From Escherichia coli (GTDB lineage: Bacteria > Pseudomonadota > Gammaproteobacteria > Enterobacterales > Enterobacteriaceae): a stretch of 64,000 nt of DNA. The position numbers and the translations under genes are program-made. This document shows positions 3,029 through 19,830 of the stretch, in pieces. The notes under the pieces are model-generated. The model was not told the origin of the DNA. It saw only the letters and a program-made list of their open reading frames with translations, and ran no database searches. The DNA is taken from the NCBI RefSeq assembly GCF_050320075.1, contig NZ_CP190018.1. The stretch is one strand, 5' to 3'. Position 1 is the first letter of the stretch; every line of letters starts with the position of its first letter.

Positions 3029-4723
3029 ATGTCAGATCAACTTCAAATGACAGATGGTATGCATATCATCGTTGAAGCATTAAAACAGAATGATATTGAC
3101 ACTATTTATGGTGTTGTAGGTATTCCTGTGACGGATATGGCGCGCCATGCCCAGGCGGAAGGCATTCGTTATATTGGTTTTCGTCATGAGCAGTCGGCAG
3201 GCTATGCCGCTGCGGCAAGCGGTTTTCTTACCCAAAAACCAGGGATCTGCCTGACAGTGTCTGCGCCAGGATTCCTCAATGGTTTGACCGCATTGGCCAA
3301 CGCAACGGTAAATGGTTTTCCGATGATCATGATTAGCGGCTCCAGCGACCGCGCGATCGTCGACCTACAGCAAGGTGATTATGAAGAGCTGGACCAAATG
3401 AATGCGGCAAAACCGTATGCCAAAGCAGCATTTCGCGTTAATCAGCCGCAGGATCTTGGCATTGCATTGGCACGCGCTATCCGGGTCTCAGTATCGGGTC
3501 GCCCTGGCGGAGTTTATCTTGATTTACCAGCAAATGTCCTGGCCGCGACGATGGAAAAAGACGAAGCGTTAACCACGATTGTAAAAGTTGAAAATCCGTC
3601 GCCAGCATTATTGCCATGCCCGAAGTCAGTCACTAGCGCAATTTCGCTTTTAGCAAAAGCTGAACGACCATTAGTTATCCTTGGCAAAGGCGCGGCGTAT
3701 TCACAAGCGGATGAACAGCTTCGTGAATTTATTGAAAGTGCCCAGATTCCATTCCTGCCAATGTCTATGGCGAAAGGGATCCTCGAAGATACACATCCAC
3801 TTTCTGCGGCAACTGCGCGTTCGTTTGCCCTGGCAAATGCTGACGTTGTCATGCTTGTCGGTGCACGACTGAATTGGTTACTGGCACACGGTAAAAAAGG
3901 ATGGGCGGCAGATACACAGTTTATTCAACTGGATATTGAACCGCAGGAAATTGACAGCAACCGCCCCATTGCTGTGCCAGTCGTTGGCGATATTGCATCC
4001 AGTATGCAAGGTATGCTGGCAGAATTGAAACAAAACACATTTACGACTCCACTGGTATGGCGCGATATTTTAAATATCCACAAGCAGCAAAATGCACAAA
4101 AAATGCATGAAAAATTAAGTACAGATACTCAACCATTAAATTACTTTAATGCATTAAGTGCTGTGCGCGATGTATTGCGCGAGAACCAGGATATTTATTT
4201 AGTTAATGAAGGTGCAAATACCCTGGATAATGCACGAAATATTATTGATATGTATAAACCACGTCGCCGTCTGGATTGTGGTACCTGGGGTGTCATGGGC
4301 ATCGGTATGGGCTATGCCATCGGTGCTAGCGTGACCTCTGGTTCTCCGGTTGTCGCCATTGAAGGTGATAGTGCTTTTGGTTTCAGTGGGATGGAGATTG
4401 AAACGATTTGTCGATATAACCTGCCGGTGACGATCGTTATTTTTAATAATGGCGGCATCTACAGAGGAGACGGTGTTGATCTCAGTGGCGCTGGTGCACC
4501 ATCACCAACAGATCTATTGCACCATGCAAGGTATGACAAATTAATGGATGCGTTTCGTGGCGTTGGCTATAACGTCACTACGACAGATGAACTTCGTCAT
4601 GCTTTAACCACCGGTATTCAGTCGCGCAAACCGACCATTATTAATGTGGTCATCGACCCTGCAGCAGGAACTGAAAGTGGCCATATTACCAAACTTAACC
4701 CAAAACAAGTCGCTGGTAATTAA
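3029..4723 (+). CDS. oxc: oxalyl-CoA decarboxylase (ThDP-dependent)
   Basis: Track ORF 564 aa; thiamine-diphosphate enzyme family sequence recognised as Oxc (YfdU). Confidence 0.95.
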
Positions 4724-5809: not shown

Positions 5810-6955
5810 ATGACAAATAATGAATGCAAAGGGCCGTTTGAAGGCTTATTAGTTATCGATATGACACATGTCCTTAATGGACCTTTCGGAACTCAACTTC
5901 TTTGTAATATGGGCGCAAGGGTAATTAAAGTTGAGCCGCCGGGTCATGGTGATGATACCCGCACATTTGGTCCCTATGTGGATGGACAGTCACTCTATTA
6001 CAGTTTTATTAATCATGGCAAAGAGAGTGTGGTTCTTGATTTAAAGAATGATCACGATAAAAGTATATTTATAAATATGCTTAAACAAGCTGATGTATTA
6101 GCTGAGAATTTTCGCCCAGGTACAATGGAAAAACTGGGGTTTTCATGGGAAACGCTACAAGAAATCAACCCGCGTCTCATATATGCTTCATCGTCAGGTT
6201 TTGGGCATACCGGCCCGCTAAAAGATGCTCCAGCCTACGATACCATCATTCAGGCAATGAGCGGGATAATGATGGAAACAGGGTACCCTGATGCTCCGCC
6301 AGTGCGCGTGGGTACCTCTCTTGCGGATTTATGTGGCGGTGTCTATTTATTCAGCGGAATAGTGAGTGCACTTTATGGCCGCGAAAAGAGCCAGAGAGGG
6401 GCGCATGTCGATATAGCGATGTTTGATGCCACGCTGAGTTTTCTGGAGCATGGTCTGATGGCATATATTGCGACAGGGAAGTCACCACAACGCCTGGGAA
6501 ATCGCCATCCCTACATGGCACCTTTTGATGTTTTTGATACTCAGGATAAGCCGATTACGATTTGTTGTGGTAATGACAAGCTTTTTTCTGCGTTATGCCA
6601 GGCACTGGAGCTTACGGAACTGGTTAATGATCCCCGATTTAGCAGCAATATTTTACGCGTACAAAACCAGGCTATTCTTAAACAATATATTGAGCGAACG
6701 TTAAAAACGCAGGCAGCTGAAGTTTGGTTAGCCAAAATACATGAAGTTGGTGTGCCCGTCGCGCCGTTATTAAGTGTGGCTGAGGCCATTAATTTGCCAC
6801 AAACTCAGGCGAGAAATATGTTGATTGAAGCCGGGGGAATAATGATGCCAGGTAATCCGATAAAAATCAGCGGCTGCGCGGACCCGCATGTTATGCCGGG
6901 AGCGGCAACGCTCGACCAACATGGGGAACAAATTCGCCAGGAGTTTTCATCATAA
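5810..6955 (+). CDS. yfdE: family III CoA-transferase YfdE (acetyl-CoA:oxalate CoA-transferase)
   Basis: Track ORF 5771..6955; start moved to the in-frame ATG at 5810 (381 aa) because the upstream part lies inside the hairpin/T-run; paralogous to Frc. Confidence 0.85.
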   Translation: MTNNECKGPFEGLLVIDMTHVLNGPFGTQLLCNMGARVIKVEPPGHGDDTRTFGPYVDGQSLYYSFINHGKESVVLDLKNDHDKSIFINMLKQADVLAENFRPGTMEKLGFSWETLQEINPRLIYASSSGFGHTGPLKDAPAYDTIIQAMSGIMMETGYPDAPPVRVGTSLADLCGGVYLFSGIVSALYGREKSQRGAHVDIAMFDATLSFLEHGLMAYIATGKSPQRLGNRHPYMAPFDVFDTQDKPITICCGNDKLFSALCQALELTELVNDPRFSSNILRVQNQAILKQYIERTLKTQAAEVWLAKIHEVGVPVAPLLSVAEAINLPQTQARNMLIEAGGIMMPGNPIKISGCADPHVMPGAATLDQHGEQIRQEFSS

Positions 6956-15793: not shown

Positions 15794-16012
15794 TTAGATG
15801 ATAAATGACAGCAGGAATGTGCCCGCCAGAGCGACGACTGAAGCGATAAATGTCGCTGTCGTATAGTATTTAAATGTTTCATTGAGCGTAGCGCCGCAAT
15901 ATTGCTTCGCCAGCCAGAAAAGCGAGTCCGTAACGATCGTGCAGCCAATCGCACCTGAACCGATAGCAATCGCAATAATTTCCGGGCTGATGTCGGGATA
16001 CAGCGGCAGCAC
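15794..16012 (-). pseudogene. dsdX: 3' remnant of dsdX (GntP-family D-serine permease), truncated by csc cluster
   Basis: About 72 codons encoding a GntP-family C-terminus directly upstream of dsdA; similarity ends at about 16012 where csc sequence begins; in-frame stop just upstream. Confidence 0.7.
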
Positions 16013-16254: not shown

Positions 16255-17250
16255 ATGGCTTCATTAAAGGATGTCGCACGCCTGGCGGGAGTGTCGATGA
16301 TGACAGTCTCCCGGGTGATGCATAATGCAGAATCTGTGCGTCCTGCAACGCGTGATCGCGTATTGCAGGCAATCCAGACCCTGAATTATGTTCCTGATCT
16401 TTCCGCCCGTAAGATGCGCGCTCAAGGACGTAAGCCGTCGACTCTCGCCGTGCTGGCGCAGGACACTGCTACCACTCCTTTCTCTGTTGATATTCTGCTT
16501 GCCATTGAGCAAACCGCCAGCGAGTTCGGCTGGAATAGTTTTTTAATCAATATTTTTTCTGAAGATGACGCTGCCCGCGCGGCACGTCAGCTGCTTGCCC
16601 ACCGTCCGGATGGCATTATCTATACTACAATGGGGCTGCGACATATCACGCTGCCTGAGTCTCTGTATGGTGAAAATATTGTATTGGCGAACTGTGTGGC
16701 GGATGACCCAGCGTTACCCAGTTATATCCCTGATGATTACACTGCACAATATGAATCAACACAGCATTTGCTCGCGGCGGGCTATCGTCAACCGTTATGC
16801 TTCTGGCTACCGGAAAGTGCGTTGGCAACAGGGTATCGTCGGCAGGGATTTGAGCAGGCCTGGCGTGATGCTGGACGAGATCTGGCTGAGGTGAAACAAT
16901 TTCACATGGCAACAGGTGATGATCACTACACCGATCTCGCAAGTTTACTCAATGACCACTTCAAATCGGGCAAACCAGATTTTGATGTTCTGATATGTGG
17001 TAACGATCGCGCAGCCTTTGTGGCTTATCAGGTTCTTTTGGCGAAGGGGGTACGTATCCCGAAGGATGTCGCCGTAATGGGCTTTGATAATCTGGTTGGC
17101 GTCGGGCATCTGTTTTTACCGCCGCTGACCACAATTCAGCTTCCACATGACATTATCGGGCGGGAAGCTGCATTGCATATTATTGAAGGTCGTGAAGGGG
17201 GAAGAGTGACGCGGATCCCTTGCCCGCTGTTGATCCGTTGTTCCACCTGA
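16255..17250 (+). CDS. cscR: LacI-family sucrose operon repressor CscR
   Basis: Track ORF 16057..17250; start moved to in-frame ATG at 16255 (331 aa) where the LacI-type HTH begins (MASLKDVARLAGVSMMTVSRV). Confidence 0.9.
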   Translation: MASLKDVARLAGVSMMTVSRVMHNAESVRPATRDRVLQAIQTLNYVPDLSARKMRAQGRKPSTLAVLAQDTATTPFSVDILLAIEQTASEFGWNSFLINIFSEDDAARAARQLLAHRPDGIIYTTMGLRHITLPESLYGENIVLANCVADDPALPSYIPDDYTAQYESTQHLLAAGYRQPLCFWLPESALATGYRRQGFEQAWRDAGRDLAEVKQFHMATGDDHYTDLASLLNDHFKSGKPDFDVLICGNDRAAFVAYQVLLAKGVRIPKDVAVMGFDNLVGVGHLFLPPLTTIQLPHDIIGREAALHIIEGREGGRVTRIPCPLLIRCST

Positions 17251-17257
17251 TATTATG

Positions 17258-18691
17258 TTAACCCAGTTGCCAGAGTGCTCCATGTTGCAGCACAGCCACT
17301 CCGTGGGAGGCATAGAGCGACAGTTCCCGTTCTTCTGGCTGCGGATATATTCGGCTACTCATCACCGCCTCCCCGTCGTTAATAAATACTTCCACGGATG
17401 ATGTATCGATAAATATCCTTAGGGCGAGCATGTCACCCTGCGGGAGGGGAATACTACGGTAGCCATCTAAATTCTCGTGTGGGTAATACCGCCACAAAAC
17501 AAGTCGCTCAGATTGGTTATCAATATACAGCCGCATTCCAGTGCCGAGCTGTAATCCGTAATGTTCGGCATCACTGTTCTTCAGCGCCCACTGCAACTGA
17601 ATCTCAACTGCTTGCGCGTTTTCCTGCAAAACATATTTATTGCTGATTGTGCGGGGAGAGATAGATTGATGCTGCTGGCGTAACGACTCAGCTTCGTGTA
17701 CCGGGCGTTGTAGAAGTTTGCCATTGCTCTCTGATAGCTCGCGCGCCAGCGTCATGCAGCCTGCCCAGCCTTCACGTTTTGAGGGCATTGGCGATTCCCA
17801 CATATCCATCCAGCCGATAACAATACGCCGACCATCCTTCGCTACAAAGCTTTGTGGTGCATAAAAGTCATGCCCGTTATCAAGTTCAGTAAAATGCCCG
17901 GATTGTGCAAAAAGTCGTCCTGGCGACCACATTCCGGGTATTACGCCACTTTGAAAGCGATTTCGATAACTGTATCCCTCGGCATTCATTCCCTGCGGGG
18001 AAAACATCAGATAATGCTGATCGCCAAGGCTGAAAAAGTCCGGACATTCCCACATATAGCTTTCACCCGCATCAGCGTGGGCCAGTACGCGATCGAAGGT
18101 CCATTCACGCAATGAACTGCCGCGATAAAGCAGGATCTGCCCCGTGTTGCCTGGATCTTTCGCCCCGACAACCATCCACCATGTGTCGGCTTCACGCCAC
18201 ACTTTAGGATCGCGGAAGTGCATGATGCCTTCTGGTGGAGTGAGGATCACACCCTGTTTCTCGAAATGAATACCATCCCGACTGGTAGCCAGACATTGTA
18301 CTTCGCGAATTGCATCGTCATTACCTGCACCATCGAGCCAGACGTGTCCGGTGTAGATAAGTGAGAGGACACCATTGTCATCGACAGCACTACCTGAAAA
18401 ACACCCGTCTTTGTCATTCTCGTCTCCTGGCGCTAGCGCAATAGGCTCATGCTGCCAGTGGATCATATCGTCGCTGGTGGCATGTCCCCAGTGCATTGGC
18501 CCCCAGTGTTCGCTCATCGGGTGATGTTGATAAAACGCGTGATAACGATCGTTAAACCAGATCAGGCCGTTTGGATCGTTCATCCACCCGGCAGGAGGCG
18601 CGAGGTGAAAATGGGGATAGAAAGTGTTACCTCGGCGCTCGTGAAGTTTTGCTAGTGCGTTTTGCGCCGCATGTAATCGAGATTGCGTCAT
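17258..18691 (-). CDS. cscA: sucrose-6-phosphate hydrolase / invertase CscA (GH32)
   Basis: Track ORF 17258..18700; start at the in-frame ATG giving 477 aa; GH32 motifs WMNDPNG and EC present. Confidence 0.9.
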   Translation of the reverse strand: MTQSRLHAAQNALAKLHERRGNTFYPHFHLAPPAGWMNDPNGLIWFNDRYHAFYQHHPMSEHWGPMHWGHATSDDMIHWQHEPIALAPGDENDKDGCFSGSAVDDNGVLSLIYTGHVWLDGAGNDDAIREVQCLATSRDGIHFEKQGVILTPPEGIMHFRDPKVWREADTWWMVVGAKDPGNTGQILLYRGSSLREWTFDRVLAHADAGESYMWECPDFFSLGDQHYLMFSPQGMNAEGYSYRNRFQSGVIPGMWSPGRLFAQSGHFTELDNGHDFYAPQSFVAKDGRRIVIGWMDMWESPMPSKREGWAGCMTLARELSESNGKLLQRPVHEAESLRQQHQSISPRTISNKYVLQENAQAVEIQLQWALKNSDAEHYGLQLGTGMRLYIDNQSERLVLWRYYPHENLDGYRSIPLPQGDMLALRIFIDTSSVEVFINDGEAVMSSRIYPQPEERELSLYASHGVAVLQHGALWQLG

Positions 18692-18725
18692 TTTTATCAT
18701 CCTGGTTAAGCAAATTTGGTGAATT

Positions 18726-18737
18726 GTTAACGTTAAC
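18726..18737. promoter_or_regulatory. candidate CscR operator O1
   Basis: Perfect 12-bp palindrome GTTAACGTTAAC in the cscA/cscK divergent promoter region. Confidence 0.5.
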
Positions 18738-18789
18738 TTTTATAAAAATAAAGTCCCTTACTTTCATAAATGCGATGAATATCACAAAT

Positions 18790-18801
18790 GTTAACGTTAA
18801 C
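18790..18801. promoter_or_regulatory. candidate CscR operator O2
   Basis: Second identical copy of GTTAACGTTAAC (both preceded by TG), 64 bp from the first. Confidence 0.5.
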
Positions 18802-18906
18802 TATGACGTTTTGTGATCGAATATGCATGTTTTAGTAAATCCATGACGATTTTGCGAAAAAGAGGTTTATCACTATGCGTAAGTCAGATGAATTTAAGGG
18901 AAAAAA

Positions 18907-19830
18907 ATGTCAGCCAAAGTATGGGTTTTAGGGGATGCGGTCGTAGATCTCTTGCCAGAATCAGACGGGCGGCTACTGCCTTGTCCTGGCGGCGCGCCAG
19001 CTAACGTTGCGGTGGGAATCGCCAGATTAGGCGGAACAAGTGGGTTTATAGGTCGGGTCGGTGATGATCCTTTTGGTGCGTTAATGCAAAGAACGCTGCT
19101 AACTGAGGGTGTCGATATCACGTATCTGAAGCAAGATGAATGGCACCGGACATCCACGGTGCTTGTCGATCTGAACGATCAAGGAGAACGTTCATTTACG
19201 TTTATGGTCCGCCCCAGTGCCGATCTTTTTTTAGAGACGACAGACTTGCCCTGCTGGCGACATGCCGAATGGTTACATCTCTGTTCAATTGCGTTGTCTG
19301 CCGAGCCTTCGCGTACCAGCGCATTTACTGCGATGACGGCGATCCGGCATGCCGGAGGTTTTGTCAGCTTCGATCCCAATATTCGTGAAGATCTATGGCA
19401 AGACGAGCATTTGCTCCGCTTGTGTTTGCGGCAGGCGCTACAACTGGCGGATGTCGTCAAGCTCTCGGAAGAAGAATGGCGACTTATCAGTGGAAAAACA
19501 CAGAACGATCGGGATATATGCGCCCTGGCAAAAGAGTATGAGATCGCCATGCTGTTGGTGACTAAAGGTGCAGAAGGGGTGGTGGTCTGTTATCGAGGAC
19601 AAGTTCACCATTTTGCTGGAATGTCTGTGAATTGTGTCGATAGCACTGGGGCGGGAGATGCGTTCGTTGCCGGGTTACTCACAGGTCTGTCCTCTACGGG
19701 GTTATCTACAGATGAGAGAGAAATGCGACGAATTATCGATCTCGCTCAACGTTGCGGAGCGCTTGCAGTAACAGCGAAAGGGGCAATGACAGCGCTGCCA
19801 TGTCGACAAGAACTGGAAAGTGAGAAGTAA
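18907..19830 (+). CDS. cscK: fructokinase CscK (PfkB family)
   Basis: Track ORF 307 aa, ribokinase/pfkB fold with GAGD motif. Confidence 0.9.
   Translation: MSAKVWVLGDAVVDLLPESDGRLLPCPGGAPANVAVGIARLGGTSGFIGRVGDDPFGALMQRTLLTEGVDITYLKQDEWHRTSTVLVDLNDQGERSFTFMVRPSADLFLETTDLPCWRHAEWLHLCSIALSAEPSRTSAFTAMTAIRHAGGFVSFDPNIREDLWQDEHLLRLCLRQALQLADVVKLSEEEWRLISGKTQNDRDICALAKEYEIAMLLVTKGAEGVVVCYRGQVHHFAGMSVNCVDSTGAGDAFVAGLLTGLSSTGLSTDEREMRRIIDLAQRCGALAVTAKGAMTALPCRQELESEK

Follow-up and report, generated by a model that had tools for sequence, protein, structure and literature searches.

Twin palindromes between cscA and cscK of Escherichia coli: putative CscR operators in a conserved CRP cassette

The spacer that separates the divergently transcribed sucrose genes cscA and cscK of Escherichia coli contains two identical 12-bp perfect palindromes, which we regard with high confidence as putative operators of the LacI-family repressor CscR. 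The explanation that best accounts for the evidence as a whole, and one that we consider very likely, is that both would be CscR operators embedded in a rigid cassette of CRP sites, from which the repressor would silence cscA and cscKB as long as inducer is absent. The pair itself is already known: it is the same element as the csc operators published for the E. coli strains EC3132 and W. What was obtained here is its sequence, geometry, conservation and co-occurrence with cscR, and these comparative data reproduce and extend the known putative-operator assignment. The addition is a modest one and consists of the conservation of the cassette in about 60 species of Enterobacterales, its exact internal distances and its presence in unidirectional operons.

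CscR-dependent repression, cAMP dependence and the existence of a derepressing operator mutation are taken from the literature. Two 12-bp inverted repeats between cscA and cscK were described as putative operators by Jahreis et al. 2002 (J Bacteriol 184:5307), as recounted in the csc-related parts of PMC11251922 and also of PMC3938415. According to the same parts of PMC11251922, one of the putative operators is the site of an up-regulating, i.e. derepressing, mutation. The inverted repeats are conserved in five species and lie on both sides of the cscA −35/−10 elements, the downstream repeat being placed over the start site (PMC11251922). A CRP site is adjacent to the repeats and the promoter is cAMP-dependent (PMC11251922, PMC3938415); the csc promoter has further been described as bidirectional with ‘two cAMP-CrpA binding sites’, while the inducer of CscR is not established according to the same source (PMC3938415). 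An operator mutation of cscK is on record for EC3132, and the same cscKB operator mutation was re-isolated in E. coli W (csc-related parts of PMC11251922 and PMC3938415); this ‘cscKB operator’ mutation leads to growth on low sucrose (PMC3938415). In an evolved EHEC isolate, a deletion across cscR and the 3′ end of cscA derepressed cscA, cscK and cscB 28- to 156-fold, and a reporter of the cscA promoter was under CscR-dependent control (PMC7486766). Papers from 2014 and 2024 still word the csc operators as ‘putative’ or ‘thought to’ (PMC3938415, PMC11251922), and the later papers summarising csc regulation yielded no EMSA, footprint or ChIP on CscR. The csc system of EC3132 and W shares with the 64-kb stretch of E. 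coli DNA analysed here (hereafter the window) the same two 12-bp repeats, a LacI-type CscR, dependence on cAMP-CRP and two CRP sites, and shows no sequence difference from it. The features to which the following refers are, in the coordinates of the window:

16255–17250, plus strand: cscR, encoding a 331-aa repressor of the LacI family and running towards cscA (LacI-family models; full-length match to LacI-family proteins in the PDB; annotation; conserved helix-turn-helix)
17258–18691, minus strand: cscA, sucrose hydrolase (invertase) (TIGR01322, 477 bits, above cutoff; RefSeq start)
18726–18737, no strand: O1, the cscA-proximal putative operator, GTTAACGTTAAC (exact palindrome; conservation; putative CscR operator in PMC11251922)
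18739–18750, minus strand: candidate cscA −10 region, TATTTT then TATAAA, immediately upstream of O1 (placed by alignment and class II CRP geometry)
18771–18786, minus strand: inner CRP-like site (‘CRPmid’), TGTGATATTCATCGCA (9/10 consensus; 1.46 bits/column; presumed to function as such here)
18790–18801, no strand: O2, the cscA-distal putative operator on the cscK side, GTTAACGTTAAC (exact palindrome; conservation; invariant gaps to the CRP sites)
18812–18827, plus strand: outer CRP-like site (‘CRPup’), TGTGATCGAATATGCA (7/10 consensus; 1.04 bits/column)
18864–18874, plus strand: conserved block GGTTTATCACT, candidate cscKB −10 (TATCAC, 18868–18873; suggested by conservation)
18907–19830, plus strand: cscK, fructokinase (NCBIfam NF006957, 506 bits, above cutoff; annotation)
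19892–21139, plus strand: cscB, sucrose:H+ symporter, a LacY-type oligosaccharide MFS transporter (TIGR00882, 595 bits; annotation)

The repressor gene adjoins the cscA/cscK locus and is annotated as ‘sucrose operon repressor CscR’; the closest PDB relative of its product, a full-length LacI-family match, is 6NDI. Over 5.2 kb the csc region is 100% identical to that of several E. coli strains, and the locus is present in about 2650–2660 of 5426 complete genomes. At the left edge of the csc island, a dsdX remnant without its N-terminus (15794–16012) lies beside an intact dsdA, and at the right edge a fragment of a DUF4942 gene (21219–21401) is followed by tRNA-Arg (argW, 21581–21655), bounds in keeping with the hot spot of recombination described in the literature (PMC11251922). 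Gene names vary between records: in most RefSeq records cscK appears as ‘aminoimidazole riboside kinase’, cscA as ‘sucrose-6-phosphate hydrolase’ and cscR just as ‘LacI family regulator’, while a newer RefSeq record uses the names fructokinase, sucrose hydrolase and CscR.

A pattern search finds GTTAACGTTAAC, which equals its own reverse complement, exactly twice in the window, at 18726–18737 and 18790–18801. This bears out the two identical 12-bp perfect palindromes reported in the earlier note, whose 64-bp separation between divergent cscA and cscK likewise agrees with the coordinates and the RefSeq annotation. The copies are 64 bp apart both start-to-start and centre-to-centre, with 52 bp between them. 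The remark that each is ‘preceded by TG’ is correct if the first G of the palindrome itself is counted and incorrect otherwise, the preceding base being T. With T on either side of each copy (5′ contexts TT/G and AT/G), the common direct repeat becomes the 14-mer TGTTAACGTTAACT. For O1, which stops 34 nt short of the start codon of cscA, this repeat spans 18725–18738; for O2, which sits between the two CRP-like sites, it spans 18789–18802. Both copies fall within the 215-bp spacer between cscA on the minus and cscK on the plus strand (18692–18906), which is AT-rich (30% GC versus 49% for the window). Measured from the start codons, O1 lies 35–46 bp before the ATG of cscA, and O2 lies 99–110 bp before the ATG of cscA and 106–117 bp before that of cscK.

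A single palindrome of this length would be unremarkable, given that the window contains 16 palindromes of 12 bp compared to 18.8 ± 4.4 in first-order Markov simulations. The expected count of GTTAACGTTAAC in 64 kb is 0.004, and a second copy within the spacer is expected about 1e-5 to 2e-5 times when the composition of the spacer is used. If up to two mismatches are allowed, for which about 2.3 matches of any kind are expected, the window holds six further matches with two mismatches (11041, 12377, 26704, 37824, 38764 and 58100), the first five of which are located inside evgA, emrK, fadL and two fimbrial genes; chance probably accounts for these five. As to a tandem duplication of the 64-bp unit, inspection of the sequence by eye revealed no likeness beyond the shared 14-mer. 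Searching the full-text literature for GTTAACGTTAAC as a word returned unrelated primer sequences only.

Operators of the LacI family are usually even palindromes of 14–22 bp with a central CG, located within −140 to −30, and 1173 of 1303 LacI-family motifs are even palindromes with a central CG (PMC4052901). The csc element, in which GTTAAC is followed by a second GTTAAC, forms an even palindrome centred on a CG step, extended to TGTTAACGTTAACA in most species, and both O1 and O2 lie inside the usual zone 30–140 bp upstream. A cognate LacI-family gene, cscR (16255–17250), is found in the same locus, the sites are conserved while their flanks diverge, as in a phylogenetic footprint, and the motif co-occurs with a regulator whose DNA-reading residues are conserved. 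Taken together, the literature, the central CG, the co-occurrence with cscR and the near-invariance of the sites versus their drifting flanks support the earlier suggestion that the palindromes serve as operators for a LacI-family CscR; comparison with the published csc operator mapping is in agreement, as it leads to the two putative CscR operators of the csc-related parts of PMC11251922 and PMC3938415. No palindrome was seen in front of cscR in the E. coli window, so autoregulation is not supported in E. coli.

Within the species, the spacer is 97.7–100% identical among about 2660 E. coli genomes (coverage of the region is incomplete in about 4–5 of 2662), and the sampled SNPs (18695, 18714, 18717, 18808 and 18883) all lie outside the palindromes. 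Exact-word searches recovered an intact O1 in at least 2510 genomes and an intact O2 in at least 1994, both counts being lower bounds because the exact 28-base word is also broken by flanking SNPs; the lower count for O2 is in line with a common SNP in its flank, at 18808. A natural 64-bp deletion, corresponding to 18726–18789 of the window, is carried by CT265 (L083, NZ_CP095795.1) and O78 strain 3 (L086, NZ_CP084096.1). It reduces the two palindromes to one, removes the inner CRP site together with the presumed cscA core promoter and leaves a spacer of 151 bp versus 215 bp. Its probable origin is a recombination or slippage event involving the two 14-bp direct repeats.

For comparison across species, we used one genome per species with a CscA relative, i.e. 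80 loci with CscA 53–98% identical, located the relatives of CscR, CscK and CscB in them and scanned for the palindrome at up to one mismatch. The twin site is present beside the cscA-like gene in 64 of the 80 loci (CscA 55–98%, CscR 48–96% identical), with a spacing of 64 bp in 43 loci, 63 bp in 11, 62 bp in three and 68–69 bp in seven, all of the latter from Proteus. One rigid cassette with a spacing of 62–64 bp is found in 58 of the 64 twin-site loci. Nearly all matches at up to one mismatch in the 997 kb of fetched loci fall in the cassette (136 of 137), and every one of the 67 loci that have a cscR orthologue and a complete upstream region carries at least one site. Among the eight loci without cscR, four (three from Lonsdalea and one from Serratia marcescens) lack the site as well, and the other four have one or two sites with no cscR within 6 kb. 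Two of these, Tatumella sp. JGM118 (L006) and Serratia sp. Ag1 (L072), carry twin sites without cscR within 6 kb on either side, so that their regulator is either encoded elsewhere or lost; P. rustigianii (L011) and Symbiopectobacterium (L052) carry a single site.

In 38 non-redundant species, the information content amounts to 1.99 bits/column for O2 and 1.93 for O1 versus 0.15–0.44 for the spacers, the operator values being somewhat inflated by the alignment of the loci on the motif itself. On the protein side, 71 orthologues, some of them as little as 48% identical, all share the CscR recognition helix VS(M/L)MTVSR, and the half-site is likewise invariant.

Several lineages carry variants of the element. 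Three Providencia loci, with sites at approximate positions 1651/1715 (L009), 4631/4695 (L010) and 4592/4656 (L014), have the central CG changed mirror-wise, the distal operator GTTAATGTTAAC and the proximal operator GTTAACATTAAC being reverse complements of one another. Variant operators of the same kind occur in Morganella (L013 and L015, site at 4637), CscR being merely 48–49% identical in these Providencia and Morganella loci, and the proximal copy is decayed in Morganella and P. rustigianii. The Proteus loci (L045–L047, L049, L051, L054 and L057; sites near 5819/5888) have the half-site variants GATAACGTTAAC and GTTATCGTTAAC at 68–69 bp, no recognisable CRP sites between or beside the operators, a divergent fructokinase-like gene and no CscB relative. 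In yet other loci (L059, L061, L062, L065, L067, L068, L070, L071, L074, L076 and L078–L080), from Kosakonia, Erwinia aphidicola, Phytobacter, Citrobacter werkmanii, Lelliottia, Enterobacter mori, Klebsiella and Raoultella, cscR is divergent from the cassette and the proximal operator is consistently GTTAACGTTACC. Such a divergent cscR next to the cassette, as in Klebsiella-type loci, would allow autoregulation, unlike the arrangement in E. coli. The PDB entry 6NDI (‘Transcriptional regulator’, 334 aa) closely matches the N-terminus of Klebsiella-type CscR.

Read towards the start codon, the cassette comprises a CRP site, 10 nt, the distal operator, 3 nt, a second CRP site, 31–33 nt, the proximal operator and about 40 nt; in the E. 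coli window, 33 nt separate the inner CRP site from O1 and 34 nt separate O1 from the cscA start. The gaps of 10 nt and 3 nt around the distal operator are invariant in 58 of 58 loci with a spacing of 62–64 bp, and the one stretch that varies in length is that separating the proximal operator from the inner CRP site. The inner CRP site is near-consensus and reads TGTGATTAACATCACA in most species, a conserved AAT follows the proximal operator, and the outer CRP site, centred at 18819.5 and 10 nt past O2 on the cscK side, has a near-invariant TCACA-equivalent half. From its centre at 18778.5, the inner CRP site is 41.5 bp away from the first base of O1, which is a class II distance if transcription starts there, as we presume, and which fits the literature's placement of the downstream repeat over the cscA start (PMC11251922).

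On the cscK side, the loci of E. coli gene order share a further block, in which GGTTTATCA is invariant and whose full length fits GGTTTATCAMT in all seven of them; it stands 33–43 bp before the cscK start codon (Escherichia, Citrobacter amalonaticus, Tatumella and Pluralibacter) and, to judge from its conservation, may be the −10 element of the cscKB promoter. Counted from this candidate, the outer CRP site would be near −61 and O2, which we infer to be the ‘cscKB operator’ of the literature, near −85, which is not a classical repressing position. A scan of 18600–19000 for sigma-70 promoter and terminator consensus sequences found none. That no strong sigma-70 consensus promoter appears is as expected for a CRP-dependent promoter, and with the scan empty, the promoter positions given here derive from CRP geometry and conservation. 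RNA structure was also considered and rejected, as the folding of the cscA and cscK leaders shows no advantage over that of shuffled sequences (z = 0.44 and 0.18, respectively).

In the mechanism that we favour, one CscR dimer would occupy each operator when inducer is absent. O1 would probably cover the cscA transcription start and block RNA polymerase, a placement suggested by the 41.5 bp that separate its first base from the centre of the inner CRP site. O2 lies between both CRP sites, right beside the inner one, where the bound repressor would probably prevent or neutralise CRP-dependent activation, and in E. coli it would also govern the divergent cscKB promoter, which would use the outer CRP site. 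On this scheme, transcription is predicted to start at about 18737 for cscA and at about 18880 for cscK. CscR would be released by sucrose or one of its products, after which cAMP-CRP would activate both operons. Physical binding of CscR, the transcription starts and the interplay with CRP are the parts of this scheme that we infer. A related layout is known from scr of pUR400 and Klebsiella, where ScrR operators flank the scrY promoter and a CRP site lies upstream (Cowan 1991; Jahreis and Lengeler 1993, cited in the portions of PMC11251922 on scr). ScrR differs from CscR in that it belongs to another repressor lineage with another motif, binds 14-bp repeats, responds to fructose and serves a PTS pathway. 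Conservation of the scr CRP site is poor, in contrast to that of both csc CRP sites in the loci compared here.

The working model of the literature is a simpler one, in which O1 is private to the cscA promoter and O2 to that of cscKB, each blocking its own RNA polymerase. We regard this as possible yet somewhat doubtful. Two divergent operons do exist in E. coli, and the ‘cscKB operator’ mutation permits growth on low sucrose (PMC3938415). E. coli shares the order cscBK-cassette-cscA with Citrobacter amalonaticus, Tatumella and Pluralibacter; the loci of Yersinia, Rahnella, Serratia, Erwinia, Pantoea and others have the cassette followed by a gene for a LacY-type transporter and then by cscA. 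Five loci, from Rahnella, Ewingella, Enterobacter sp. Ag1 and two Serratia species, have a co-oriented upstream neighbour that ends within 250 bp of the two operators, a distance that falls below 100 bp in four of them. In Enterobacter sp. Ag1 and the two Serratia loci the neighbour is of unrelated family (a metI-like permease in the former, a metabolite/H+ symporter in the latter), and in Rahnella and Ewingella it has no family match. The twin site, its spacing and both CRP sites are nevertheless retained in these one-direction loci. A cassette that is kept with a single promoter direction cannot serve solely to provide one operator per divergent promoter, which weakens the earlier note's proposal to that effect. 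The position of O2 near −85 relative to the conserved candidate cscK −10 speaks against a private cscKB operator as well, as does the account of PMC11251922 itself, in which both repeats flank the −35/−10 elements of cscA.

The same comparison permits a more far-reaching reading, which we offer tentatively and with considerable doubt. The arrangement CRP–10 nt–O–3 nt–CRP–31–33 nt–O would be an ancient, order-wide module serving a single promoter, at which the distal operator excludes or captures CRP and the proximal one blocks the start; the divergent cscKB operon would be a later passenger on its distal half.

Looping of the kind known from LacI would require a CscR oligomer, or two interacting dimers, to bridge O1 and O2 with the 52-bp promoter segment looped out. 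The distance of 64 bp between centres corresponds to about 6.1 helical turns and puts the operators on the same face of the helix, and a spacing of 62–64 bp is kept in 58 of 65 loci. The order operator–CRP–promoter–operator also resembles the well-established O3–CAP–promoter–O1 of lac, which shares with csc the order of elements, a repressor of the LacI family and the location of the operators on one helical face. In csc, however, the control region is more compact (64 bp versus 92 bp), the operators are identical perfect palindromes and the repressor is without the tetramerisation helix of LacI: CscR (331 aa) aligns to residues 5–313 of the 360 of LacI, with 13 residues left. Without this C-terminal extension a LacI-type loop is not expected, and the cooperative looping envisaged in the earlier note is disfavoured. 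Moreover, a loop of 64 bp would be very tight, the 68–69 bp of Proteus amount to about 6.5 turns and thus to opposite faces, and the constant spacing is explained equally well by a fixed promoter geometry from CRP site to start. On this comparison, LacI-style looping appears unlikely.

A CytR-like anti-activation, in which CscR at O2 would do more than occupy DNA and would switch off activation by CRP, either through a CRP-CscR-CRP complex or through strict competition, appears improbable on the whole. The repressor site does lie between two tandem CRP sites, with gaps of 10 and 3 nt in 58 of 58 loci, and O2 and the 22-bp CRP footprint would abut or overlap, to judge from the sequence. In this respect csc is like the CytR-CRP promoters deoP2, cdd and udp, in which a LacI-family site is likewise placed between two tandem CRP sites, one of them class II-like. 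It differs in that its CRP centres are 41 bp apart, its palindrome is strong and perfect and a second operator lies at the presumed start. At deoP2, the CRP centres are about 52–53 bp apart. CytR operators are weak and flexible, whereas O2, as a perfect palindrome, should be bound unaided, and CscR scores 136 bits against the NCBIfam model of CytR, far below the cutoff of 436. The tight fit of O2 between the CRP sites suggests, speculatively, that CscR may compete or cooperate with CRP there.

Finally, it is highly improbable that the palindromes are not CscR operators and represent chance, binding sites of a different regulator (Cra/FruR, for example) or hairpins in RNA or DNA: the central AACGTT is indeed shared with the Cra/FruR consensus and GTTAACGTTAAC amounts to two tandem HpaI sites, but only about 1e-5 occurrences would be expected by chance, the sites go with cscR orthologues rather than with the genome at large, the outer half-site positions are unlike those of Cra and a loop-less AT-rich 12-mer is unable to form a stable hairpin.

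With both palindromes as putative CscR operators, a call made from sequence alone is confirmed, which is of practical value. Engineering of csc genes for growth on sucrose routinely takes these operators out or works around them. The operator pair and both CRP sites stay at exact distances in Escherichia, Citrobacter, Yersinia, Rahnella, Serratia, Erwinia, Klebsiella and others, also where only one operon is present. Such a fixed cassette gives a sharper and testable view of the link between sucrose induction and catabolite control, and it could guide the design of sucrose-responsive promoters and biosensors.
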